From Escherichia coli (GTDB lineage Bacteria; Pseudomonadota; Gammaproteobacteria; Enterobacterales; Enterobacteriaceae), in assembly GCF_003018235.1 (NCBI RefSeq), contig NZ_CP027437.1: a stretch of 64,000 bases of DNA; one strand, given 5' to 3'. Each line of letters starts with the position of its first letter. Within the stretch, counting starts at the first letter, position 1. The position numbers and the translations under genes were made by a program. The notes beneath the pieces are model-generated. The model was not told the DNA's origin and searched no databases. It saw only the letters and a list, made by a program, of their open reading frames with translations. Shown here piece by piece: positions 884 through 46,888 of this stretch.

Positions 884-3118
884 ATGGTTGCGGTAAGAAG
901 TGCACATATCAATAAGGCTGGTGAATTTGATCCGGAAAAATGGATCGCAAGTCTGGGTATTACCAGCCAGAAGTCGTGTGAGTGCTTAGCCGAAACCTGG
1001 GCGTATTGTCTGCAACAGACGCAGGGGCATCCGGATGCCAGTCTGTTATTGTGGCGTGGTGTTGAGATGGTGGAGATCCTCTCGACATTAAGTATGGACA
1101 TTGACACGCTGCGGGCGGCGCTGCTGTTCCCTCTGGCCGATGCCAACGTAGTCAGCGAAGATGTGCTGCGTGAGAGCGTCGGTAAGTCGGTCGTTAACCT
1201 TATTCACGGTGTGCGTGATATGGCGGCGATCCGCCAGCTGAAAGCGACGCATACCGATTCTGTTTCCTCCGAACAGGTCGATAACGTTCGCCGGATGTTA
1301 TTGGCGATGGTCGATGATTTTCGCTGCGTGGTCATCAAACTGGCAGAGCGTATTGCTCATCTGCGCGAAGTAAAAGACGCGCCGGAAGATGAACGCGTAC
1401 TGGCGGCAAAAGAGTGCACCAATATCTACGCGCCGTTGGCGAACCGTCTTGGGATTGGACAACTGAAATGGGAGCTGGAAGATTACTGCTTCCGTTATCT
1501 CCACCCGACCGAATACAAACGCATCGCAAAACTGCTGCATGAACGCCGTCTCGACCGCGAACACTATATCGAAGAGTTTGTCGGTCATCTGCGCGCTGAG
1601 ATGAAAGCTGAAGGCGTTAAAGCTGAAGTGTATGGTCGTCCGAAACACATCTACAGCATCTGGCGCAAAATGCAGAAAAAGAACCTCGCCTTCGATGAGC
1701 TGTTTGATGTGCGTGCGGTACGTATTGTCGCCGAGCGTTTACAGGATTGTTATGCCGCACTGGGGATAGTGCACACTCACTATCGCCACCTGCCGGATGA
1801 GTTTGACGATTACGTCGCTAACCCGAAACCAAACGGTTATCAGTCTATTCATACCGTGGTTCTGGGACCAGGTGGCAAAACCGTAGAGATCCAAATCCGC
1901 ACCAAACAGATGCATGAAGATGCAGAGTTGGGTGTTGCTGCGCACTGGAAATATAAAGAAGGCGCGGCAGCTGGCGGCGCACGTTCGGGACATGAAGACC
2001 GAATTGCCTGGCTGCGTAAACTGATTGCGTGGCAGGAAGAGATGGCTGATTCCGGCGAAATGCTCGACGAAGTACGCAGCCAGGTCTTTGACGACCGGGT
2101 GTATGTCTTTACGCCGAAAGGTGATGTCGTTGATTTGCCTGCGGGATCAACACCGCTGGACTTCGCTTACCACATCCACAGTGATGTCGGACACCGCTGC
2201 ATCGGGGCAAAAATTGGCGGGCGCATTGTGCCGTTCACCTACCAGCTGCAGATGGGCGACCAGATTGAAATTATCACCCAGAAACAGCCGAACCCCAGCC
2301 GTGACTGGTTAAACCCAAACCTCGGTTACGTCACAACCAGCCGTGGGCGTTCGAAAATTCACGCCTGGTTCCGTAAACAGGACCGTGACAAAAACGTTCT
2401 GGCTGGGCGGCAAATCCTTGACGACGAGCTGGAACATCTGGGGATCAGCCTGAAAGAAGCAGAAAAACATCTGCTGCCGCGTTACAACTTCAATGATGTC
2501 GACGAGTTGCTGGCGGCGATTGGTGGCGGGGATATCCGTCTCAATCAGATGGTGAACTTCCTGCAATCGCAATTTAATAAGCCGAGTGCCGAAGAGCAGG
2601 ACGCCGCCGCGCTGAAGCAACTTCAGCAAAAAAGCTACACGCCGCAAAACCGCAGTAAAGATAACGGTCGTGTGGTGGTTGAAGGTGTCGGTAACCTGAT
2701 GCACCACATCGCGCGCTGCTGCCAGCCGATTCCTGGAGATGAGATTGTCGGCTTCATTACCCAGGGACGCGGTATTTCAGTACACCGCGCCGATTGCGAA
2801 CAACTGGCGGAACTGCGCTCCCATGCGCCAGAACGCATTGTTGACGCGGTATGGGGTGAGAGCTACTCCGCCGGATATTCGCTGGTGGTCCGCGTGGTGG
2901 CTAATGATCGTAGTGGGTTGTTACGTGATATCACGACCATTCTTGCCAACGAGAAGGTGAACGTACTTGGCGTTGCCAGCCGTAGCGACACCAAACAGCA
3001 ACTGGCGACTATCGACATGACCATTGAGATTTACAATCTGCAAGTGCTGGGCCGCGTGCTGGGTAAACTCAATCAGGTGCCAGACGTTATCGACGCGCGT
3101 CGGTTGCACGGGAGTTAG
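884..3118 (+). CDS. relA: GTP pyrophosphokinase, (p)ppGpp synthetase I
   Basis: 744-aa ORF with RBS aaggagagg upstream; RelA/SpoT family sequence; synteny with mazEF. Confidence 0.95.
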   Translation: MVAVRSAHINKAGEFDPEKWIASLGITSQKSCECLAETWAYCLQQTQGHPDASLLLWRGVEMVEILSTLSMDIDTLRAALLFPLADANVVSEDVLRESVGKSVVNLIHGVRDMAAIRQLKATHTDSVSSEQVDNVRRMLLAMVDDFRCVVIKLAERIAHLREVKDAPEDERVLAAKECTNIYAPLANRLGIGQLKWELEDYCFRYLHPTEYKRIAKLLHERRLDREHYIEEFVGHLRAEMKAEGVKAEVYGRPKHIYSIWRKMQKKNLAFDELFDVRAVRIVAERLQDCYAALGIVHTHYRHLPDEFDDYVANPKPNGYQSIHTVVLGPGGKTVEIQIRTKQMHEDAELGVAAHWKYKEGAAAGGARSGHEDRIAWLRKLIAWQEEMADSGEMLDEVRSQVFDDRVYVFTPKGDVVDLPAGSTPLDFAYHIHSDVGHRCIGAKIGGRIVPFTYQLQMGDQIEIITQKQPNPSRDWLNPNLGYVTTSRGRSKIHAWFRKQDRDKNVLAGRQILDDELEHLGISLKEAEKHLLPRYNFNDVDELLAAIGGGDIRLNQMVNFLQSQFNKPSAEEQDAAALKQLQQKSYTPQNRSKDNGRVVVEGVGNLMHHIARCCQPIPGDEIVGFITQGRGISVHRADCEQLAELRSHAPERIVDAVWGESYSAGYSLVVRVVANDRSGLLRDITTILANEKVNVLGVASRSDTKQQLATIDMTIEIYNLQVLGRVLGKLNQVPDVIDARRLHGS

Positions 3119-3134
3119 GCCGAAATTAGCTCGT

Positions 3135-3173
3135 ATCTACAATGTAGATTGATATATACTGTATCTACATATG
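3135..3173 (+). promoter_or_regulatory. mazEF promoter/operator region with palindromic repeats
   Basis: Perfect palindrome atctacaatgtagat at 3135-3149 and repeated tatctacat at 3161-3170; -10-like tatact at 3155-3160; directly upstream of mazE. Confidence 0.6.
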
Positions 3174-3195
3174 ATAGCGGTTTGAGGAAAGGGTT

Positions 3196-3444
3196 ATGAT
3201 CCACAGTAGCGTAAAGCGTTGGGGAAATTCACCGGCGGTGCGGATCCCGGCTACGTTAATGCAGGCGCTCAATCTGAATATTGATGATGAAGTGAAGATT
3301 GACCTGGTGGATGGCAAATTAATTATTGAGCCAGTACGTAAAGAGCCCGTATTTACGCTTGCTGAACTGGTCAACGACATCACGCCGGAAAACCTCCACG
3401 AGAATATCGACTGGGGGGAGCCGAAAGATAAGGAAGTCTGGTAA
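3196..3444 (+). CDS. mazE: Antitoxin MazE
   Basis: 82-aa [22 protein letters not shown]..., AbrB/MazE fold; overlaps mazF start (ATGGTAA). Confidence 0.95.
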
Positions 3445-3779
3445 TGGTAAGCCGATACGTACCCGATATGGGCGATCTGATTTGGGTTGATTTTGACCCG
3501 ACAAAAGGTAGCGAGCAAGCCGGACATCGTCCGGCTGTTGTCCTGAGTCCGTTCATGTACAACAACAAAACAGGTATGTGTCTGTGTGTTCCTTGTACAA
3601 CGCAATCAAAAGGATATCCGTTCGAAGTTGTTTTATCCGGTCAGGAACGTGATGGCGTAGCGTTAGCTGATCAGGTAAAAAGTATCGCCTGGCGGGCAAG
3701 AGGAGCAACGAAGAAAGGAACGGTTGCCCCAGAGGAATTACAGCTCATTAAAGCCAAAATTAACGTGCTGATTGGGTAG
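3444..3779 (+). CDS. mazF: Endoribonuclease toxin MazF
   Basis: 111-aa [25 protein letters not shown]..., PemK/MazF family. Confidence 0.95.
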   Translation: MVSRYVPDMGDLIWVDFDPTKGSEQAGHRPAVVLSPFMYNNKTGMCLCVPCTTQSKGYPFEVVLSGQERDGVALADQVKSIAWRARGATKKGTVAPEELQLIKAKINVLIG

Positions 3780-3850
3780 GTGTTACTAACTCACTTCTAT
3801 TCTGGTCACAGGTTTCCACCTGACAGACCCGCAATTTTCAGGACATTCTA

Positions 3851-4642
3851 ATGAATCAAATCGACCGTTTGCTCACTATTATGCAGCGCCTGCGCGACCC
3901 GGAAAACGGCTGCCCGTGGGATAAAGAGCAGACATTTGCCACCATTGCACCTTACACCCTTGAAGAAACCTACGAAGTGCTGGACGCTATTGCCCGTGAA
4001 GATTTTGACGATCTGCGCGGTGAACTCGGCGATCTACTGTTCCAGGTGGTTTTTTACGCACAAATGGCCCAGGAAGAAGGGCGCTTTGATTTTAATGATA
4101 TTTGCGCCGCGATTAGCGATAAATTAGAACGTCGCCATCCGCATGTTTTTGCTGACAGTTCTGCCGAAAACAGTAGTGAAGTGCTTGCCCGTTGGGAGCA
4201 AATCAAAACCGAAGAGCGCGCGCAGAAAGCGCAGCATTCGGCGCTGGACGATATTCCTCGTAGTTTACCAGCCTTAATGCGTGCACAAAAAATCCAGAAA
4301 CGTTGCGCCAACGTTGGTTTTGACTGGACGACGCTTGGTCCGGTAGTCGATAAAGTCTACGAAGAGATCGACGAGGTGATGTACGAGGCACGGCAGGCTG
4401 TTATCGACCAGGCTAAACTGGAGGAGGAAATGGGCGACCTGCTGTTTGCCACGGTCAATCTGGCTCGTCATTTAGGGACAAAAGCGGAAATCGCATTGCA
4501 AAAAGCGAACGAAAAATTCGAGCGTCGTTTTCGCGAAGTGGAGCGTATTGTTGCCGCGCGTGGACTGGAAATGACAGGTGTTGACCTCGAAACAATGGAA
4601 GAAGTCTGGCAACAGGTAAAACGGCAGGAAATTGATCTCTAA
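3851..4642 (+). CDS. mazG: Nucleoside triphosphate pyrophosphohydrolase MazG
   Basis: 263-aa ORF, MazG NTP-PPase family; downstream of mazEF. Confidence 0.93.
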   Translation: MNQIDRLLTIMQRLRDPENGCPWDKEQTFATIAPYTLEETYEVLDAIAREDFDDLRGELGDLLFQVVFYAQMAQEEGRFDFNDICAAISDKLERRHPHVFADSSAENSSEVLARWEQIKTEERAQKAQHSALDDIPRSLPALMRAQKIQKRCANVGFDWTTLGPVVDKVYEEIDEVMYEARQAVIDQAKLEEEMGDLLFATVNLARHLGTKAEIALQKANEKFERRFREVERIVAARGLEMTGVDLETMEEVWQQVKRQEIDL

Positions 4643-9999: not shown

Positions 10000-10128
10000 A
10001 TATTTAGCTTTTCAATCAATGAATTAAGTGCTCTTTAACATAATGGATGTGTTGTTTGTGTGATACTGTAAAGTTGGTAGATTGTGACTGGCTTAAAAAA
10101 TCATTAATTAATAATAGGTTATGTTTAG
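10000..10128 (+). promoter_or_regulatory. AT-rich CRISPR leader (approximate bounds)
   Basis: AT-rich non-coding stretch abutting the first, leader-proximal repeat; the degenerate repeat is at the opposite end of the array. Confidence 0.5.
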
Positions 10129-10400
10129 AGAGTTCCCCGCGCGAGCGGGGATAAACCGGCCGTCGCCGGATCAGCCTGGCTATGCCAGCAGAGTTCCCCG
10201 CGCCAGCGGGGATAAACCGGACGAACAAAATAAAAACCAACTGAATGATGCGAGTTCCCCGCGCCAGCGGGGATAAACCGCGAACCCTTGAACCGATAAG
10301 GGCGCTGTTTTGGAGTTCCCCGCGCCAGCGGGGATAAACCGGATAGGTGTTACACATATGACCTGGCACTGGCGAGTTTCCCGCGCCAGCGGGGATAACC
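10129..10400 (+). CRISPR. Type I-E-style CRISPR array, 5 repeats and 4 spacers
   Basis: 29-nt repeat gagttccccgcgccagcggggataaaccg at 10129 (variant cgcgag), 10190, 10251, 10312, plus degenerate terminal repeat at 10373-10400; four 32-nt spacers at 10158-10189, 10219-10250, 10280-10311, 10341-10372. Confidence 0.95.
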
Positions 10401-26242: not shown

Positions 26243-26260
26243 ATGTTATCCGGATAAATT

Positions 26261-26299
26261 AAACGCCTCTGTCAGAAATGATGGGGGCGTTTTTATTTT
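26261..26299 (+). terminator. Rho-independent terminator after cysH
   Basis: aaacgcc...ggcgttt stem followed by ttttatttt. Confidence 0.6.
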
Positions 26300-26409
26300 G
26301 CGAGCAGCATTCCTGATTTTAAACGTGAACGCCGCTGGAAGAATCAACAGGTATAGAATGGTGTCGGGTGCTTGAGGCTGTCTGGCGTTAAGCATTCGCG
26401 AGGTTCCAG

Positions 26410-26514
26410 ATGGACAAAAGCCCCAGGCGATATTTCTATCAACCTGAGGCCAGCGTTCGAACCCAAACAATTCGAATGTTAGTCTCTTCTTTGCAGGGAG
26501 GCAAGACATGCTGA
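26410..26514 (+). CDS. mok-like leader ORF overlapping the hok-like start (34 codons)
   Basis: ATG at 26410, stop TGA at 26512-26514 overlapping the downstream ATG (acATGcTGA); translation [34 protein letters not shown]. Confidence 0.4.
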
Positions 26515-26660
26515 CAAAATATGCCCTTGTGGCAATCATAGTGCTGTGTTTTACAGTACTGGGATTCACGCTGATGGTAGGCGACTCGTTGTGTGAGTTG
26601 AGTATCAGAGAACGTGGTATGGAGTTTAAGGCAGTTCTCGCTTACGAATCGAAGAAGTAG
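26508..26660 (+). CDS. Hok/Gef-family membrane toxin (type I toxin-antitoxin), 50 aa
   Basis: [50 protein letters not shown]: single TM helix plus conserved LCEL..R.G..E..A..AYES.K tail; below the ORF-track size cutoff. Confidence 0.8.
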
Positions 26661-26786
26661 CCACCACGCGGGGGTAAAACCCCGCGTACTGAATTGTTAA
26701 AGTTTGGCCTCCTGCACCCCTTTTTTATACTCTGTTTCTGGTGGCATTGATTTCCTGCAGGCAAGGGAGTAATCATTTCAAACCCA

Positions 26787-27824
26787 TCAAGACGCCTTCG
26801 CCAGCTCCTTCACCAGCGGTAGCATTATCCGCATAACATCACGGCAGCGACGTTCTATTCTTCCTGGAAGTGCCTTATCAATATGTTGTTGATTATCCAG
26901 TCTTACGTCATGCCAGCTATTTCCCGCAGGGAATGCAGCTGTTTTTGCGCGTTGCTGATAACCATCCTTATTCCCAAGATTCCAATTTGTTGCTTCTACC
27001 GAAAGTACGGCAATACCGGCTTTGTCGAAAACTTCGGCGTCATTACAACAGCCAGTACCCTTCGGATAATTTTTATTCAAACCCGGATTGGTCGTTGCGG
27101 CAATTCCATGACTACGCGCAATTGCCAGCGCCCTGTCGCGCGTTAATTTCCTTACTGCTTCAGGGGTTTTTACGCCGCTGTTGAAATACAATTTATCGCC
27201 AACAATTAAGTTATCGAGATTAATCACCAGCAGCGTATTTTTCTTTTCGGTGTCACTCATCCGCTTGAGTAAATTCTCAGCACCTAATTTCCCTTCCTCT
27301 TCACCACTGGTCGCCACAAATCGAATACCATACTCGGTAGGCGTATTTTTCAGGCGTTCTGCCAATTCCAGCATGACACCTAAACCTGCAGCGTTATCAT
27401 CCATTCCTTGTAACGTCAGTCCGCCGAGATTGGCATCGGCGTCAGCATCGCTCAGCGGGGCGTAAGTATCCAGATGCGCCATAATGATGATCTGCTGCGG
27501 CGCTTTGCCTTCATGAGCGGCAATCACCGTACTTCCCGTCACGTTATGCCAGCTCTTGCGATTATCGCGGGCGGTATAAATATACCGACTATTAAATGTC
27601 CGAATATCACTGCGATAACCCATTTGCTGAAACTGTTGGCGAATATAATCGGCAGATAACATTTCTGCTGGAGTTCCGGTCATGCGTCCCGGAAAGAAAG
27701 TAGCAATATGTCGTGCCTGAGTATTAGCAAAATCGCCAGGTTTAGATGACGAGGCGTGTACGGGGAGAATAAAGCATACGCCGAGCGCCAGGGCAGCGGT
27801 ACGGTGGCGCAATGCGGAAAACAT
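26787..27824 (-). CDS. iap: Alkaline phosphatase isozyme conversion aminopeptidase
   Basis: 345-aa ORF with signal peptide; M28 peptidase family; convergent with cysH. Confidence 0.9.
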   Translation of the reverse strand: MFSALRHRTAALALGVCFILPVHASSSKPGDFANTQARHIATFFPGRMTGTPAEMLSADYIRQQFQQMGYRSDIRTFNSRYIYTARDNRKSWHNVTGSTVIAAHEGKAPQQIIIMAHLDTYAPLSDADADANLGGLTLQGMDDNAAGLGVMLELAERLKNTPTEYGIRFVATSGEEEGKLGAENLLKRMSDTEKKNTLLVINLDNLIVGDKLYFNSGVKTPEAVRKLTRDRALAIARSHGIAATTNPGLNKNYPKGTGCCNDAEVFDKAGIAVLSVEATNWNLGNKDGYQQRAKTAAFPAGNSWHDVRLDNQQHIDKALPGRIERRCRDVMRIMLPLVKELAKAS

Positions 27825-37965: not shown

Positions 37966-38373
37966 CTATGTGTTCATCATCTTGCGCACTAGCTGCATAA
38001 ACAGCTCCTGCTCTTCTCCACTCAAACGCCCCAAAAATTCCTCATCCACGCTGTCACCTATCGGTATCGCCGCAGCAAGTATCTTTTCGCCTTCGGCAGT
38101 CAGCCAGACAAAGCGTCGCCGCTTGTCAGCGGCGTCATGTTCACGTCTGACTAAGCCACGATTTTCCATTCTTGCCAACATTTCTGCCAGCGTTGCTTTG
38201 GTGCTGACGGCTGCTTCCATCAGTGCCACCTGTTCGATACCAGGTTTATCAGCAATGGCGCGCATCACCGCGTACTGTGGTTTGGTCAGATCAGGTAACT
38301 CGTGCTGCCAGCGGGCCGTGTGTTGCTGAAAAAGCTGTCGTAACTGATGGAACGCTTTATTTCGTAACGCCAT
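37966..38373 (-). CDS. MarR/SlyA-family transcriptional regulator
   Basis: 135-aa ORF with winged-helix MarR-like region; divergent from the decarboxylase operon. Confidence 0.8.
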   Translation of the reverse strand: MALRNKAFHQLRQLFQQHTARWQHELPDLTKPQYAVMRAIADKPGIEQVALMEAAVSTKATLAEMLARMENRGLVRREHDAADKRRRFVWLTAEGEKILAAAIPIGDSVDEEFLGRLSGEEQELFMQLVRKMMNT

Positions 38374-38488
38374 GTAAACTCCGGGCTAATTCTCTGTCGC
38401 TATCATAGCGGTTTTTCAGTGACGAAGAAGATGTTGTTACTTTTCAATCCTTGCCGCTGTGGAAATGAAGGAGTATGTTAATAATAAC

Positions 38489-38502
38489 GTTCGTATACGA
38501 AC
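38489..38502. promoter_or_regulatory. Candidate operator: 14-bp perfect palindrome between the regulator and decarboxylase operon
   Basis: gttcgtatacgaac is its own reverse complement; 18 bp upstream of the UbiX-like start. Confidence 0.45.
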
Positions 38503-38519
38503 AATTAAGAGAGTAAGCA

Positions 38520-39113
38520 ATGAAACTGATCGTCGGGATGACAGGGGCTACCGGTGCGCCTCTTGGTGTGGCATTACTGCAAGCGCTGCGGGAGATGCCG
38601 AATGTCGAGACTCATCTGGTGATGTCGAAGTGGGCGAAAACCACTATTAAACTGGAAACGCCTTACAGCGCTCGCGATGTTGCCGCCCTCGCAGACTTCA
38701 GCCATAACCCGGCGGATCAGGCGGCGACTATCTCTTCCGGCTCCTTTCGTACCGACGGCATGATCGTTATTCCATGCAGTATGAAAACGCTCGCCGGTAT
38801 CCGCGCTGGTTACGCCGATGGCCTGGTGGGGCGCGCGGCGGACGTCGTGCTCAAAGAAGGCCGCAAACTGGTGCTGGTGCCGCGTGAAATGCCGCTTAGC
38901 ACAATCCATCTCGAAAATATGCTCGCACTTTCGCGCATGGGCGTGGCGATGGTGCCGCCGATGCCTGCCTTTTATAACCATCCCGAAACGGTAGATGACA
39001 TTGTCCACCACGTGGTAGCCCGCGTGCTGGATCAATTTGGCCTCGAACATCCTCACGCCAGGCGCTGGCAAGGATTGCCGCAGGCCCGGAATTTTTCTCA
39101 GGAGAATGAATAA
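38520..39113 (+). CDS. ecdB: UbiX-like flavin prenyltransferase (Pad1 / decarboxylase B subunit)
   Basis: 197-aa ORF MKLIVGMTGATGAPLGVALLQAL...; symbol from memory of O157-type annotation. Confidence 0.85.
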   Translation: MKLIVGMTGATGAPLGVALLQALREMPNVETHLVMSKWAKTTIKLETPYSARDVAALADFSHNPADQAATISSGSFRTDGMIVIPCSMKTLAGIRAGYADGLVGRAADVVLKEGRKLVLVPREMPLSTIHLENMLALSRMGVAMVPPMPAFYNHPETVDDIVHHVVARVLDQFGLEHPHARRWQGLPQARNFSQENE

Positions 39114-40540
39114 TGGCATTTGATGATTTACGCAGCTTTTTACAGGCGCTTGATGACCACGGCCAGTTACTGAAAATCAGCGAAGAGGTGAACGCGGAAC
39201 CGGATCTGGCAGCCGCAGCCAACGCCACCGGGCGTATCGGCGACGGCGCGCCCGCGCTTTGGTTTGATAATATTCGCGGCTTTATCGATGCCCGCGTGGC
39301 AATGAACACCATCGGTTCCTGGCAGAACCACGCGATTTCCCTCGGCCTGCCGCCAAACACCCCGGTTAAAAAACAGATTGATGAGTTTATCCGCCGCTGG
39401 GATAACTTCCCCATTACCCCGGAGCGCCGCGCTAATCCAGCCTGGGCGCAGAACACCGTCGATGGCGACGAGATCAACCTGTTCGATATTCTGCCGCTGT
39501 TTCGTTTAAACGACGGTGATGGCGGTTTCTATCTCGATAAAGCGTGCGTGGTTTCCCGCGATCCGCTCGACCCGGATAACTTCGGCAAGCAGAACGTCGG
39601 CATCTACCGCATGGAAGTGAAGGGCAAACGTAAGCTCGGCCTGCAACCGGTGCCGATGCACGATATCGCTCTGCATCTGCATAAAGCGGAAGAACGCGGT
39701 GAAGATCTGCCGATTGCCATCACCCTGGGTAACGATCCGATCATCACCCTGATGGGCGCCACGCCGCTGAAATACGATCAGTCTGAGTACGAAATGGCGG
39801 GCGCGCTGCGCGAAAGCCCGTACCCGATCGCCACCGCCCCGCTGACCGGTTTTGATGTGCCGTGGGGCTCGGAAGTGATCCTCGAAGGGGTTATCGAAAG
39901 TCGTAAACGTGAGATTGAAGGGCCGTTCGGTGAGTTTACCGGCCACTACTCCGGCGGGCGTAACATGACCGTGGTGCGTATCGATAAAGTCTCTTACCGT
40001 ACCAAACCGATTTTCGAATCGCTCTATCTTGGTATGCCGTGGACCGAAATCGACTACCTGATGGGGCCTGCCACCTGCGTGCCGCTGTATCAGCAACTGA
40101 AAGCCGAGTTCCCGGAAGTGCAGGCGGTAAACGCCATGTACACCCACGGCCTGTTGGCGATTATCTCCACCAAAAAACGCTACGGCGGCTTTGCCCGCGC
40201 GGTGGGCCTGCGTGCAATGACCACGCCGCACGGTCTGGGCTACGTGAAGATGGTGATTATGGTCGATGAAGACGTTGATCCGTTCAACCTGCCGCAGGTG
40301 ATGTGGGCGCTCTCCTCGAAAGTGAACCCGGCAGGCGACCTGGTGCAGTTGCCAAATATGTCCGTGCTGGAACTCGACCCTGGCTCAAGCCCGGCGGGGA
40401 TCACCGACAAGCTGATTATCGACGCCACCACGCCTGTCGCCCCGGACAACCGTGGTCACTACAGCCAGCCGGTGGTGGATTTACCGGAAACCAAAGCCTG
40501 GGCTGAAAAACTGACCGCTATGCTGGCCGCACGTAAATAA
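39113..40540 (+). CDS. ecdC: UbiD-family (prFMN-dependent) aromatic acid decarboxylase, C subunit
   Basis: 475-aa ORF, UbiD family; start overlaps the UbiX-like stop; symbol from memory. Confidence 0.85.
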   Translation: MAFDDLRSFLQALDDHGQLLKISEEVNAEPDLAAAANATGRIGDGAPALWFDNIRGFIDARVAMNTIGSWQNHAISLGLPPNTPVKKQIDEFIRRWDNFPITPERRANPAWAQNTVDGDEINLFDILPLFRLNDGDGGFYLDKACVVSRDPLDPDNFGKQNVGIYRMEVKGKRKLGLQPVPMHDIALHLHKAEERGEDLPIAITLGNDPIITLMGATPLKYDQSEYEMAGALRESPYPIATAPLTGFDVPWGSEVILEGVIESRKREIEGPFGEFTGHYSGGRNMTVVRIDKVSYRTKPIFESLYLGMPWTEIDYLMGPATCVPLYQQLKAEFPEVQAVNAMYTHGLLAIISTKKRYGGFARAVGLRAMTTPHGLGYVKMVIMVDEDVDPFNLPQVMWALSSKVNPAGDLVQLPNMSVLELDPGSSPAGITDKLIIDATTPVAPDNRGHYSQPVVDLPETKAWAEKLTAMLAARK

Positions 40541-40550
40541 GGAGAACAAG

Positions 40551-40787
40551 ATGATTTGTCCACGTTGTGCCGATGAACAGATTGAAGTGATGGCGAAATC
40601 GCCGGTAAAAGATGTCTGGACGGTCTACCAGTGCCAGCATTGCCTCTATACCTGGCGCGATACCGAACCGCTACGCCGCACCAGCCGCGAACATTATCCC
40701 GAAGCGTTCCGCATGACGCAGAAAGATATTGATGACGCGCCGATGGTGCCGAGCATCCCGCCGCTGCTGGCGGAAGGTAAGCGCTAA
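40551..40787 (+). CDS. ecdD: Decarboxylase small subunit D (Cys-rich, zinc-ribbon-like)
   Basis: 78-aa ORF MICPRCADEQ...CQHC; typical third gene of bsdBCD/kpdBCD-type operons; symbol from memory. Confidence 0.75.
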   Translation: MICPRCADEQIEVMAKSPVKDVWTVYQCQHCLYTWRDTEPLRRTSREHYPEAFRMTQKDIDDAPMVPSIPPLLAEGKR

Positions 40788-40790
40788 ATA

Positions 40791-40818
40791 AAAAGTCCGA
40801 TGCCCATCGGACCTTTTT
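40791..40818. terminator. Bidirectional terminator between the decarboxylase operon and convergent ygbN
   Basis: aaaa gtccgatg ccc atcggac ctttttatt: hairpin flanked by A- and T-runs. Confidence 0.7.
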
Positions 40819-40825
40819 ATTAAGG

Positions 40826-42190
40826 TCAAATTACCGCCCATACGCACCAGGTAATTAAGAATCCGGTAAAACCGAGAATGGTCGTTAACACTGTCCAGGT
40901 TTTCAGACCGTCTGCTACCGACAACCCCAGATATTTGGTCACAATCCAGAACCCTGAGTCATTAATATGTGACGCGCCAAGCCCACCAAAGCAGGCTGCC
41001 AGCGTCACCAATACGCACTGAATCGGATTCAATCCCATCACCGCTTCTGAGAGTAACCCGCCGGTTGTCAGGATTGCTACGGTTGCTGACCCCTGCGATG
41101 CACGCAGCGCCAGTGAAATAATAAATGCGGCTGGTAACAGAGGCAGGTCAATCATTTGTAGCATGTTGGCAAGGGCTTTGCCGACGCCCGATTCCACCAG
41201 CACTTTGCCAAATACCCCTCCAGCACCAGTAACCAAAATCACTACCGCCGCAGTGGGAAGGGCTGAGCCCATAATGTCGCTGGTGTGTTGTAAGCTCCAG
41301 CCGCGACGTAAAGCCAATAACCAGAATGCCAGCACCAGCGCAATCATTAGAGCTACCATTGGTGAGCCGATCAGCTGTAGCGTACCAAGCAGGGGATGCG
41401 AAGGCGGCATCAGTGTTGCGGAAACCGTACCCGCCATGATAATCGCGATAGGAATAACAATTAGCGAGGTGACCAGCGCGACGCCCGGTGGATTTATTTT
41501 ATCGCTTAATTTTGTCGCGCCTTCCTCACTGGCCGGAGCCAGTTGCATCTGTTCCAGTACTTCCACCGACATCGCATATTGGCGCTTATTGATTATTTTC
41601 GCTGCAAAGTAGCCAACAATCCCTACTGGAATAGAAATCGCAATACCGATGATGGTTAGCCAGCCGATGTCTGCGTGGAGTAACCCCGCTGCGGCGACAG
41701 GGCCTGGATGCGGCGGTACCGCCACATGAACAGTTAGCATGATTCCAGCGACAGGCAGGCCAAATTTGAGTGGCGATATTTTGGCAACCTTGGCAAAACC
41801 GTAAATGATTGGCGCAAGAATAATAAAGCCGACATCAAAGAAGACGGGAATACCGAGGAAGAACGCTGCCAGAGTCAGCGCAGCGATAGTTCGTTTGTCA
41901 CCTAACTTGCGACTGAAATAATTAGCCAGTGACTCTGCACCACCAGAGTGTTCGATCATACGCCCCAGCATAGCACCCAGACCAATAATAATAGTGACGG
42001 AACCAAGCACACCGCCCATCCCGGCGATCATCACTTTACCCACTTCGCCCGCTGGTATACCCGCCGCAAGTGCGACTAACAGGCTGACGAGGAGCAGAGC
42101 AACGAATGGTTGTACCTTTGCCTTGATGACCAGCAGCAACAGCATGATTACGCCAGTTAACGCAATGCATAACAATGTAATTGTGGACAT
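40826..42190 (-). CDS. ygbN: GntP-family permease (putative acid-sugar transporter)
   Basis: 454-aa polytopic membrane ORF; synteny with ygbM-ygbI. Confidence 0.88.
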   Translation of the reverse strand: MSTITLLCIALTGVIMLLLLVIKAKVQPFVALLLVSLLVALAAGIPAGEVGKVMIAGMGGVLGSVTIIIGLGAMLGRMIEHSGGAESLANYFSRKLGDKRTIAALTLAAFFLGIPVFFDVGFIILAPIIYGFAKVAKISPLKFGLPVAGIMLTVHVAVPPHPGPVAAAGLLHADIGWLTIIGIAISIPVGIVGYFAAKIINKRQYAMSVEVLEQMQLAPASEEGATKLSDKINPPGVALVTSLIVIPIAIIMAGTVSATLMPPSHPLLGTLQLIGSPMVALMIALVLAFWLLALRRGWSLQHTSDIMGSALPTAAVVILVTGAGGVFGKVLVESGVGKALANMLQMIDLPLLPAAFIISLALRASQGSATVAILTTGGLLSEAVMGLNPIQCVLVTLAACFGGLGASHINDSGFWIVTKYLGLSVADGLKTWTVLTTILGFTGFLITWCVWAVI

Positions 42191-42278
42191 GGGAAACCCT
42201 GTCTGAAAGTTATAGTTAACCTACCCCATCCGTAGATGGGGGGATGTATGGGTACGTTGTAATTAGGGATTTAACGAA

Positions 42279-43055
42279 TTAGCGCCAGGCGTCAAACCAG
42301 CCAAGCCCTTCTTCGGTGAGGCCACGAGGTTTATATTCACAACCGATCCAGCCCTGATATCCCACCTCATCGAACAGGCGGAACAGCCACGGATAGTTGA
42401 TTTCTCCATCGTCCGGTTCATGTCGATCAGGTAGTCCGGCAATTTGTACGTGCGCATATTTCCCGGCGTAGTCGCGGATTAAATGCGTCAGGTTGCCATC
42501 TACTTTTTGCGCATGAAAAGTATCTAGTTGAATAAACACGTTATCTCGCGCAACTTCTTCAACAATAGCCAGTGCCTGATACTGGCTGGAGAAGAGATAA
42601 TGAGGCTTAACGCCGGGGCTGAGTGCTTCAACTAATATTCGCTTGCCGTGTGGCGCAAAGCGGTCGGCAGCGTAGCGGAGATTATCGATAAATACTGCCC
42701 TGTACCGTTCAGCATCTTCGCCAGCGGGCACGACGCCTGCCATCACATGGACTTGTTCACAATTGAGCGCCAATGCATATTCCAGTGCCAGGTCGATGTC
42801 TGCGTGTGCTTCGTGCTCACGTCCGGGAAGGGCGGATAATCCCCATTCCCCCGCATTAATATCTCCGGGAGCGGTATTGAACAGCGCCAGTGTCAGATGG
42901 TTTTGCTCCAGTTGCTTTTGGATTTGCAGGGTGGAGTAGTCATAGGGAAACAGAAATTCCACAGCATCGAACCCGGCTTTTCGCGCTGCGGCGAAGCGTT
43001 CAATAAAAGGCACTTCGGTGAACATCATGGATAAATTAGCTGCAAAACGAGGCAT
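42279..43055 (-). CDS. otnI: 2-oxo-tetronate isomerase (hydroxypyruvate isomerase family)
   Basis: 258-aa ORF; xylose-isomerase-like TIM barrel; former ygbM. Confidence 0.85.
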
Positions 43056-43059
43056 TGCA

Positions 43060-43698
43060 TTAACTCCTTAATTCCGCAATTTCACCTGCGGTCAGATAAC
43101 GGATCGGGCGATCACCGAGAATAAAAATCAGCTTTGCCGTTTCCTCCAGCTCTTCCATATTGTTGGCGGCTTCTTGCAGGCTTTCACCGCAAACCACTGG
43201 GCCATGATTTGCCAGTAAAAAAGCCTGATTGTCTGCTGCCAGTTCCGCCAGATCCTGTGCGATGCGTTTATCGCCCGGTCGGTAATAAGGCACCAGCGGG
43301 ATATTTCCCATCCGCATCACCACGTATGGTGTGAACGGACGAATAACGTTGCTGCTGTCCAGCCCTTGCAGGCAGGAAAGCGCCGTCGACCATGTGCTGT
43401 GCAAATGCACCACCGCTTTACAGCGCGGATTGTTGCGATACAGCGCCAGATGAAAGAGCACCTCTTTCGAGGGTTTGTCACCACTTAACCATTCGCCATC
43501 CGCGGCGACTTTGGAAAGCCGCTGCGGATCGAGATTGCCCAGGCATGAACCTGTCGGTGTCGCCAGTAAATTCCCGTCAGGTAAAAGCAGCGACAGATTG
43601 CCAGCCGAACCGGTTGCATAGCCGCGCTGAAAGAATGAACTGGCAATCCGCGTCATCTCCTCTCGCAAAGACTGCTCTACTTTTGCGAAATCGCTCAT
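43060..43698 (-). CDS. otnC: 3-oxo-tetronate 4-phosphate decarboxylase (class II aldolase/adducin family)
   Basis: 212-aa ORF; former ygbL. Confidence 0.85.
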
Positions 43699-44957
43699 GA
43701 TAAAAACTCTCTTTGGGCTCGTGAAAAAAAGGCGTCATCACCGAAGTTGCCAGATTTAAGGGCGAGTGAGACAGGCTTATCCAGTGCGTTTACCCACGGC
43801 ACGCCGGGGGAAATGGTTGGGCCAATATGAAACCCTTTTATTCCCAGGCTCTGTGTGACTACGCCGGAGGTCTCACCGCCTGCGACAATAAAGCGTGTTA
43901 CGCCTTCCGCGGCTAACCGCGTCGCTAGTTGAGAAAACAGTGTTTCTACTGCCTGACTGGCTTTTTGTGCACCGTATTGCTGTTGAATTGCTGCCAATGC
44001 GTCAGTGCTGGCGGTGGCAAAAACCAGTGGAGCAAGTACACTTTCCTGGCCCAGAACCCACTCTGCCAGTTCGTGTGCATAAGCGGCCAGAGTTTCAATT
44101 GAGAGGCAGCGTGCCACATCAACTTCACGGGCTGGTGCAATTTGACGGTAATGTGCTACCTGGCGGTTGGTCATTTGAGAGCATGAACCGGAGAGCACTA
44201 CGCCGCGCCCAGCGAGCGGATGCCCTGCTTTGCGAGCCTGGTTACCGTTTTCTTGCGCCCACTGCCGGGCAAGGCCAATCGCCAGACCAGAACCGCCCGT
44301 TACCAGTGGGGCATCGCGCAAGGCTTCTCCCTGAATTTCCAGATGGTGTTCGGTCAGCGCATCAAGCACCGCGTAGCGGTAGCCCTCTTGCTGTAAGCGA
44401 GCCAGCTCTTGACGAACGGCATCCACACCTTGTTCGAAAACATGTGCCGAAACGACGCCGCAGCGCCCTGTGGATTGCGCTTCAACCAGACGGGGAAGAT
44501 AGCTGTCGGTCATGGGATTTACCGGGTGATGGCGCATCCCGGATTCGGCCAGCAGTTGATTCATTACGAACAAATACCCCTGATAAACCGTACGTCCGTT
44601 GACCGGCAGGGCCGGAGAGAAGACCGTAAACGGCGTGTCGAGAGCATCCATTAATGCATCGGTAACCGGGCCGATATTACCTTTCGCCGTACTGTCGAAA
44701 GTAGAGCAGTATTTGAAATAGATCTGTTTGCAACCTTGCTGTTGCAACCAGCTCAGAGCCGCCAGCGATTGCTGTGTGGCTTCAACCACCGGACAGGAAC
44801 GCGTTTTCAGGCTGATCACCAGTGCGTCGATTGCTTCCGGCATTTTACTTGTTGGAACACCGTTAATTTGTACCGTTGGTAGACCGTTTTCCACCAGAAA
44901 ACTGGCGATATCCGTCGCGCCGGTAAAATCATCGGCGATAACGCCAATCTTGATCAT
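43695..44957 (-). CDS. otnK: 3-oxo-tetronate kinase (four-carbon acid sugar kinase family)
   Basis: 420-aa ORF starting MIKIGVIADDFTGATD; former ygbK; exact start not verified. Confidence 0.8.
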   Translation of the reverse strand: MIKIGVIADDFTGATDIASFLVENGLPTVQINGVPTSKMPEAIDALVISLKTRSCPVVEATQQSLAALSWLQQQGCKQIYFKYCSTFDSTAKGNIGPVTDALMDALDTPFTVFSPALPVNGRTVYQGYLFVMNQLLAESGMRHHPVNPMTDSYLPRLVEAQSTGRCGVVSAHVFEQGVDAVRQELARLQQEGYRYAVLDALTEHHLEIQGEALRDAPLVTGGSGLAIGLARQWAQENGNQARKAGHPLAGRGVVLSGSCSQMTNRQVAHYRQIAPAREVDVARCLSIETLAAYAHELAEWVLGQESVLAPLVFATASTDALAAIQQQYGAQKASQAVETLFSQLATRLAAEGVTRFIVAGGETSGVVTQSLGIKGFHIGPTISPGVPWVNALDKPVSLALKSGNFGDDAFFSRAQREFLS

Positions 44958-45862
44958 GATTTCGCTCCCGGTAGAGTGATGCCAGAGAAAATCTTGATAA
45001 CTGCGCTATCGTCTTCTTTCCCGTAACCCGCGTTACTGGCGCTGGTGAACATATTCAATGCTGTTGAGGCCAATGGCAGCGGGAAGTGCAGGGCTTTGGC
45101 TGTATCGGCAACCAGACCAAGATCCTTAACAAAAATATCGACGGCTGAATGCGGGGTGTAATCGCCATCCACCACATGACGCATCCGGTTTTCGAACATC
45201 CAGGAATTTCCGGCGGCATTGGTCACGACGTCATACATCACATCCAGCGGGATCCCCGCACGGGCTGCAAGTGCCATCGCTTCGGCTCCGGCAGCAATAT
45301 GTACGCCCGCTAACAACTGGTGAATAATTTTTACGGTCGAACCTAGTCCCGGTTCTGCACCTATGCGATAAACTTTTCCGGCAACGGCTTCCAGCACAGG
45401 TGCCAGTCGTTCAAAGGCAATATCGCTACCGGAGGCCATGACAGTCATTTCACCGTTAGCGGCTTTTACTGCACCACCAGAAACTGGCGCATCCAGCATT
45501 TCCAGATCGAATCCAGCCAGAGCGGTAGCAATTTCTTGCGCATCAGCACTAGCGATAGTGGAAGAAACCATTACTGCCGTACCGGGTTTCAGATGTTGTG
45601 CAACGCCTGTTTCACCAAACAGCACCTGTTTAACCTGGGCCGCATTGACCACCAGCACCAGCAGAGCGTCCAGTTTTTCGGCAAACGTCGCGGCGTTATC
45701 AGAAACCCCGCAAGCACCTGCCTCTTTCAACGTAGCGCAGGCATTGCTGTTCAGGTCTGCGCCCCAGGTAGAAAGACCTGCGCGGACACATGACAGTGCT
45801 GCTCCCATTCCCATTGACCCTAAGCCAACGATACCGACATGAAACTCAGATCCCGTTTTCAT
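44954..45862 (-). CDS. ltnD: L-threonate dehydrogenase (3-hydroxyisobutyrate dehydrogenase family)
   Basis: 302-aa ORF with N-terminal Rossmann GLGSMGMG; former ygbJ. Confidence 0.85.
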   Translation of the reverse strand: MKTGSEFHVGIVGLGSMGMGAALSCVRAGLSTWGADLNSNACATLKEAGACGVSDNAATFAEKLDALLVLVVNAAQVKQVLFGETGVAQHLKPGTAVMVSSTIASADAQEIATALAGFDLEMLDAPVSGGAVKAANGEMTVMASGSDIAFERLAPVLEAVAGKVYRIGAEPGLGSTVKIIHQLLAGVHIAAGAEAMALAARAGIPLDVMYDVVTNAAGNSWMFENRMRHVVDGDYTPHSAVDIFVKDLGLVADTAKALHFPLPLASTALNMFTSASNAGYGKEDDSAVIKIFSGITLPGAKS

Positions 45863-46027
45863 CTGCTCTCCTTGTTAATTTAAGTGATATTTTGTTTGAT
45901 ATTGTGAATATAAGCGCTGGAAGATAACGATATGGTGAGCTGATTCACATAAATTAACATTGCGTGTTATTTTATGTGAACTAAGTGTTAGTTGCGCCGC
46001 GCACGTTTCGCAGGCAAATAGCGTAGA

Positions 46028-46825
46028 ATGTCAGCAGGACAAAGGAAGGAGCAAAAGTTGATACCCGTAGAGCGTCGCCAAATCATCCTTGAGATGGTAG
46101 CTGAAAAAGGCATTGTCAGTATTGCTGAACTAACGGACAGAATGAATGTGTCACATATGACCATTCGTCGGGATTTACAAAAACTGGAGCAGCAGGGAGC
46201 CGTTGTGCTGGTGTCCGGAGGCGTCCAGTCTCCGGGACGCGTGGCGCATGAACCTTCTCATCAGGTAAAAACTGCGCTGGCAATGACGCAAAAAGCGGCT
46301 ATTGGCAAGCTGGCGGCAAGTCTTGTTCAGCCGGGACGTTGTATCTATCTGGATGCGGGAACGACCACGCTAGCGATAGCACAGCATCTGATTCACATGG
46401 AGTCACTGACTGTGGTCACAAACGATTTCGTTATTGCGGACTACTTGCTCGACAACAGTAATTGCACAATTATTCACACTGGCGGTGCAGTGTGTCGGGA
46501 AAACCGTTCCTGTGTCGGGGAAGCCGCTGCGACCATGCTGCGCAGCCTGATGATTGATCAGGCTTTTATTTCTGCATCGTCATGGAGTGTGCGGGGGATT
46601 TCTACGCCAGCGGAAGATAAAGTCACGGTGAAACGGGCGATTGCCAGTGCCAGCCGCCAGCGAGTTTTGGTCTGTGATGCGACGAAATATGGTCAGGTGG
46701 CGACATGGCTGGCGTTACCATTAAGCGAGTTTGATCAGATTATTACAGACGACGGTTTGCCGGAGAGTGCCAGTCGCGCGCTGGCGAAGCAGGATCTCTC
46801 TTTGCTGGTAGCGAAAAATGAATAA
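46028..46825 (+). CDS. ygbI: DeoR-family transcriptional regulator
   Basis: 265-aa ORF with HTH (VSHMTIRRDL); an alternative TTG start 30 bp downstream would give 255 aa. Confidence 0.85.
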   Translation: MSAGQRKEQKLIPVERRQIILEMVAEKGIVSIAELTDRMNVSHMTIRRDLQKLEQQGAVVLVSGGVQSPGRVAHEPSHQVKTALAMTQKAAIGKLAASLVQPGRCIYLDAGTTTLAIAQHLIHMESLTVVTNDFVIADYLLDNSNCTIIHTGGAVCRENRSCVGEAAATMLRSLMIDQAFISASSWSVRGISTPAEDKVTVKRAIASASRQRVLVCDATKYGQVATWLALPLSEFDQIITDDGLPESASRALAKQDLSLLVAKNE

Positions 46826-46848
46826 TGGCCTGCAATAACACCGGGTTA

Positions 46849-46888
46849 CTCATGCTTCACAGAAGAAGCATGAGACTACTTTATTTTA
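46849..46888. terminator. Terminator hairpin between convergent ygbI and pphB
   Basis: ctcatgcttc acagaa gaagcatgag perfect 10-bp stem followed by ctactttatttta. Confidence 0.7.

Follow-up and report, generated by a model that had tools for sequence, protein, structure and literature searches.

The interval between relA and mazG in the DNA analysed here, a window of 64,000 nucleotides of Escherichia coli sequence, almost certainly carries mazEF (chpA), a chromosomal type II toxin-antitoxin operon of this species, in an intact, wild-type form, and nothing in its sequence speaks against this reading. The locus is already known and ordinary, few toxin-antitoxin modules having been studied as intensively, and its use here is as an annotation anchor, identifying the window as the relA-mazEFG-pyrG-eno region of E. 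coli. As such, it helps in interpreting more interesting neighbours, namely an orphan CRISPR array and a junction of cysH, hok and iap that is devoid of cas genes. The corrections made below to a first-pass annotation of the same DNA, regarding the extent of the operator and the geometry of the CRISPR-Cas loci, are refinements and not discoveries. The features under consideration are:

884-3118, plus strand: relA (GTP diphosphokinase), a 744-aa ORF with the Pfam domains HD_4, RelA_SpoT, TGS and ACT, annotated as relA in matching genomes.
3130-3179, no strand: operator region (the 'cab' fragment with three MazE-dimer sites), the only place in the window matched, and matched exactly, by nucleotides 1-50 of the 'cab' oligonucleotide printed in PMC4333400.
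3135-3149, no strand: site 'c' palindrome ATCTACAATGTAGAT (ATCTACA-A-TGTAGAT), an inverted repeat with 7-nt arms that are 100% complementary and a 1-nt centre.
3149-3162, no strand: site 'a' TTGATATATACTGT, read from the sequence, with a central ATATAT palindrome at 3152-3157; the site is as in PMC4333400.
3163-3170, no strand: core of site 'b' ATCTACAT, forming with ATGTAGAT (3142-3149) an inverted repeat with 8-nt arms that are 100% complementary.
3184-3193, plus strand: purine-rich tract GAGGAAAGGG before the mazE ATG, read from the sequence as a putative Shine-Dalgarno-like element.
3196-3444, plus strand: mazE, antitoxin, an 82-aa ORF.
3444-3779, plus strand: mazF, an 111-aa ORF, predicted from its identity to be the ACA-specific endoribonuclease toxin.
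3851-4642, plus strand: mazG (nucleoside triphosphate pyrophosphohydrolase), a 263-aa ORF matching PF03819 with 133.9 bits and so annotated.
3484→3085, minus strand: position equivalent to the antisense RNA aMEF (K-12 ncRNA ameF, b4844), which has no Rfam family, so that the coordinates derive solely from the K-12 annotation (2911051-2911450), mapped via alignment.

The first-pass annotation had recognized a canonical mazE-mazF pair downstream of relA at 3135-3779, and this identification is borne out by synteny, profile scores and complete protein identity, to a degree that chance could not plausibly produce. The comparison with annotated mazEF loci that it had proposed as a check was run, and confirmed the assignment against both K-12 and other annotated genomes. 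The bounds are exact, the first position being the first base of a palindrome and the last the final base of the mazF stop codon. The antitoxin gene comes first, on the same strand as the toxin gene, and both the sequence and the ORF listing place the mazE stop and the mazF start in a 1-nt overlap (TAATG). Spacers of 77 nt and 71 nt lie between relA and mazE and between mazF and mazG, respectively. The gene order relA-mazE-mazF-mazG-pyrG-eno matches that of annotated E. coli genomes; in the genome VCSW7 the annotated neighbourhood reads barA, rlmD, relA, mazE, mazF, mazG, pyrG and eno.

At the protein level, MazE matches the Pfam family MazE_antitoxin (PF04014) over residues 6-51 with 52.9 bits (cutoff 24.7), and thus possesses the AbrB-type N-terminal DNA-binding domain. 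MazF matches PemK_toxin (PF02452) over residues 10-109 with 84.8 bits (cutoff 23.1), which places it in the PemK/MazF family. The NCBIfam equivalog models 'antitoxin MazE' (NF007312, 196.2 bits, cutoff 113) and 'endoribonuclease MazF' (NF007386, 227.4 bits, cutoff 120) narrow these assignments further. MazF is the same, residue for residue, as the chain 3NFC_A of the PDB (E = 1.9e-73), and MazE likewise as 1MVF_D (E = 4.8e-52). Structural work on MazF has shown that R29 and T52 are needed for activity, and direct reading of the translation, a chain identical to 3NFC_A, shows both of these residues along with E24. The mutant E24A is inactive (PMC5888573). Cleavage at ACA, neutralisation by MazE and lability of MazE to proteases would all be expected of the products encoded here, given their identity to the assayed proteins (PMC5888573, PMC4333400). 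As both proteins and the operator are 100% identical to those of the published assays, a failure of MazF or MazE activity, or of operator binding, is not expected.

The control region is equally well preserved. The window contains a single copy of the 50-nt operator string, where 100 shuffles give an expectation of 0, and the whole of 3130-3179 is identical to its K-12 counterpart, the sole difference in the relA-mazE spacer, at 3128, falling outside it. Within it a direct repeat, GTATCTACA, occupies 3133-3141 and 3161-3169, and the middle arm TGTAGAT (3143-3149) has two alternative partners, in the form of an ATCTACA on either side of it, the second at 3163-3169. A paper of Marianovsky et al. 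from 2001 names an 'alternating palindrome' in its title, and a single middle arm with two possible partners would fit the structure so designated in the literature. The sequence match therefore recovers a three-site autoregulatory 'cab' operator with the alternating palindrome, corresponding to the 47-bp operator with the three MazE-dimer sites c, a and b of Zorzini et al. 2015 (PMC4333400). Site 'a' was the one used for MazE binding and structural work, and MazF was found to enhance the binding of MazE to the operator (PMC4333400). The palindromic promoter/operator of the first-pass annotation thus needs to be extended: the palindrome at 3135-3149 is real, but it represents only site 'c', the upstream third of the published operator.

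Signals that might delimit the transcription unit were sought in the two spacers. A terminator scan combined with folding detected nothing resembling a terminator on the plus strand in either the relA-mazE or the mazF-mazG spacer. The folds of the two spacers, the latter taken as 3770-3855, are no stabler than those of shuffled sequences (z = 0.36 and 0.41, respectively), which we read as no terminator and no structured leader. The absence of a terminator from both spacers agrees with the relA-mazEFG operon that has been described previously (PMC7167474). The same review reports a Fis site at mazEF (PMC7167474). A scan for the sigma-70 consensus yielded only two weak matches, each 9 of 12, which is no more than shuffles yield; the one in the spacer (3171-3200) extends into the mazE start codon, and no convincing promoter could be picked out there. 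The scan hence neither locates nor contradicts the published mazEF promoters. Rfam models at gathering thresholds found nothing in 3000-3900.

The mechanism outlined here is drawn from the literature on proteins of exactly the same sequence and is carried over by that identity. Under it, mazE and mazF would be cotranscribed from promoters in the relA-mazE spacer, supplemented by read-through from relA, and the 1-nt overlap is of a type of arrangement associated with translational coupling, which may operate here too. The MazF dimer is predicted to act as a ribosome-independent endoribonuclease, cutting single-stranded RNA at ACA and thereby shutting down translation, and a MazE dimer would block two dimers of MazF by means of its C-terminal tails, which are disordered. 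The N-terminal domain of MazE would bind the three-site operator, with MazF strengthening the binding, such that the complex represses its own transcription. Given that MazE is labile to ClpAP and Lon (PMC8749433, PMC5888573), a drop in its synthesis would be expected to set MazF free. Free MazF would probably also cleave the mazEF mRNA at its ACA sites, and aMEF, as it does in K-12, may additionally tune expression.

The last two of these layers are where the present allele could differ from that of K-12. As mapped, aMEF (400 nt in K-12) has its 5' end within mazF, crosses mazE and the operator and reaches into the 3' end of relA. It raises the production of both MazE and MazF in an RNase III-independent manner and is transcribed from a non-canonical promoter inside mazF (PMC8749433). 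Three silent changes relative to K-12, at 3521, 3533 and 3551, are located no more than 75 bp upstream of this 5' end, and fine regulation could therefore differ slightly. MazF cleavage of its own mRNA at ACA constitutes a further autoregulatory loop (PMC5888573); the ACA sites number 2 in mazE and 8 in mazF, versus 2 and 9 in K-12, the missing one being due to an A to G change at 3722. The same region also contains a 146-aa minus-strand ORF (3165-3605, TTG start) antisense to mazE and mazF, which begins upstream of the mapped aMEF 5' end and is without any match in Pfam up to E = 1; we reject it as a mechanical ORF that is probably no gene.

Direct alignment shows both proteins to be 100% identical to those of K-12 MG1655. 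The coding differences amount to 8 nucleotides (2 in mazE and 6 in mazF), every one of them a silent third-position change, and the noncoding ones, in addition to that at 3128, comprise one extra base after the mazF stop and three just before the mazG start. DNA identity of mazEF to K-12 is 98-99%; downstream, mazG is notably more diverged (96.2%) than mazE (99.2%). A megablast search with 3100-3800 recovered the stretch, always on the chromosome, in 4418 of 5426 complete E. coli genomes, 4415 of them at 95% identity or more. Three complete genomes, VCSW7, VCSW5 and 18KM2445, are 100% identical in DNA over this stretch, and among the matches listed all are annotated relA, mazE and mazF. Relatedness is mosaic, in that mazEF is 100% identical to that of VCSW7 and the remaining window only ~97.6-98.4%; over 2500-4500 no complete E. 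coli genome reaches 99% identity.

Presence of the module is itself polymorphic. A 2-kb query from the 3' end of relA to mazG matches 5425 genomes, with coverage of at least 80% in 4415. In the remaining genomes, which include Nissle 1917, the relA-mazG span is 1364 bp versus 2001 bp, so that ~19% of complete genomes are without mazEF. Alignment of the Nissle 1917 locus reveals that ~700 bp, from just past the relA stop to ~35 nt before mazG, are replaced by ~60 nt of unrelated sequence. The operator, mazE and mazF thus behave together as a single cassette of discrete extent. The polymorphism is real and already described in the literature: UTI89 has the mazEF-less allele, and in strains without mazEF relA and mazG form an undisturbed operon (PMC7167474). 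Within this ~60-nt segment of the Nissle 1917 relA-mazG spacer (L006 905-1015) lies a strong hairpin of the type GCTGGATACGGC...GCCATATCCAGC (-35.3 kcal/mol, z = -4.45), perhaps a REP-like element or a terminator of relA, and a possible mark of the ancestral empty site.

Such a distribution bears on what the module is for, an issue that remains contested, the proposals being stress-induced arrest of growth, programmed death, exclusion of phages, and a selfish insertion that does nothing for the host (PMC7167474). A host-level role, be it a stress-induced reversible arrest of translation, altruistic death, or abortive infection against phages such as P1, has in our estimate a little under an even chance of being the principal explanation. 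Deletion of mazEF is reported to increase P1 infection loads; against this stand the contradictory results and failed replications recorded in the same review (PMC7167474), and the content of the window cannot discriminate among the proposed host roles. A serious contender, to which we give somewhat less than an even chance, is that mazEF is chiefly a selfish or neutral element inserted between relA and mazG and serves the host in no dedicated way. That relA adjoins mazG without mazEF in Nissle 1917 and other strains, ~1010 of the 5425 complete genomes in all, speaks in its favour, as does the reported lack of a fitness defect in strains with multiple toxin-antitoxin deletions, and the review argues likewise (PMC7167474). 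Opposed to it is the conjunction of silent-only divergence from K-12 with retention in 81% of genomes, a pattern that shows MazE and MazF to be under purifying selection, though addiction alone could also yield it.

The neighbourhood offers a second toxin-type locus, as had been pointed out in the first-pass annotation, and among the genes annotated in the homologous region only mazEF and a gene of the Hok/Gef family are indeed of this type; a higBA-like pair in the closest genome lies past the end of the window. The accompanying proposal, that the two flank the regions which in K-12 hold the CRISPR-Cas system, holds for one element of that system: an orphan array does lie between mazEF and hok, but the cas site lies beyond hok, on the hok-iap side. 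The array is of type I-E and occupies 10132-10400, between queE and ygcE, with its repeats read on the minus strand. Four repeats match CGGTTTATCCCCGCTGGCGCGGGGAAC with 0-1 mismatch and a 61-nt period, a degenerate copy follows at ~10375-10400, and an AT-rich leader-like stretch is seen at ~10060-10130. Its position is presumably that of the K-12 CRISPR-II site. No cas genes were found in the window.

The hok/sok type I locus (26366-26660) is intact and sits between cysH and iap, with an Rfam sok match of 111 bits at 26366-26523 and a 50-aa Hok ORF at 26508-26660 whose product, at 57.7 bits, falls short of the 89 bits required by the NCBIfam equivalog model of HokA. The place of cas3-cas2 in K-12 is between sokX and iap. 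K-12 is homologous to the window over cysH and sokX as far as the ATG of hok, where the homology breaks off and the cas3 region begins; K-12 has therefore kept sokX and lost the toxin ORF, and the cas site belongs on the far side of hok, not in the interval between mazEF and hok. At the cas-less junction (26243-26790) cysH, hok and iap are contiguous, and the K-12 genes cas3-casABCDE-cas1-cas2 are absent. This junction recurs, with coverage of at least 80%, in 1195 of 5426 complete genomes, other genomes keeping hok beside cas3. By inclusion-exclusion on the 4415 mazEF-positive genomes and the 1195 junctions, mazEF and the cas-less junction must coincide in at least 184 complete genomes, a combination that is a minority state and not unique. 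The window is otherwise collinear with VCSW7 at ~98% identity, except for ~8.5 kb extra in the rpoS-mutS region. This segment (38302-46877), absent from VCSW7, is 99.5% identical to other E. coli genomes, and among the genes annotated in it are ygbN, otnK, ltnD, ygbM and those for subunits of hydroxyarylic acid decarboxylase.

The co-occurrence of intact mazEF and intact hok/sok in one 25-kb neighbourhood with loss of the cas operon is the sole basis of a further conjecture, which we regard as very unlikely, that the two modules might act as residual abortive-infection defences compensating for the lost type I-E cas genes, and that the silent changes, through the loss of one ACA site from mazF and the three substitutions upstream of the aMEF start, could shift the threshold at which MazF becomes active.

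As to the identity of the locus, a decaying or inactive remnant, disabled by frameshift, truncation, or loss of a catalytic residue or of the operator, is extremely improbable. Chromosomal toxin-antitoxin loci are often degraded, as the truncation of the neighbouring hok in K-12 illustrates, but both ORFs are full length here and encode K-12-identical proteins with silent substitutions only, the operator is unaltered and E24, R29 and T52 are in place. The remnant reading is thus refuted at the sequence level, and silencing could come about only via a trans-acting defect elsewhere in the genome. Weaker still, to the point of being negligible, is the reading as some other pair of the PemK family, be it the paralogue chpBS or a pemIK/kis-kid module of the plasmid type: the same Pfam families do cover all of these, the NCBIfam models of ChpB and ChpS match weakly and Kid (1M1F) is a detectable relative, but ChpB and ChpS score 55.2 bits (cutoff 129) and 34.6 bits (cutoff 101), which rejects membership in ChpBS, against 227/196 bits for the MazF/MazE equivalogs. 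Kid is matched at E = 7.6e-9, whereas the MazF of E. coli is matched at 1.9e-73. Of the 4421 places where the stretch was matched in complete genomes, every one is on a chromosome and none on a plasmid, and the exact relA/mazG synteny speaks against either identity.

The intact E. coli mazEF operon recognized here can accordingly be set beside three known systems. The mazEF of K-12 (chpAI/chpAK, b2783/b2782) is like that of the window in its proteins, gene order, overlap, neighbours and 50-nt operator, and differs by the 8 silent coding changes, one of which deletes an ACA site in the mazF of the window. The mazEF-less relA-mazG allele of Nissle 1917 has the same flanks, relA to its last codons and the sequence from ~35 nt before the mazG start, whereas the operator, mazE and mazF are absent, with the ~60-nt replacement instead. 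Finally, chpBS and the kis-kid/pemIK modules of the plasmids R1/R100 share with mazEF the PemK/MazF toxin fold family and the operon logic of antitoxin followed by toxin, but they are distant paralogues found at different genomic locations, with scores far under the cutoffs.
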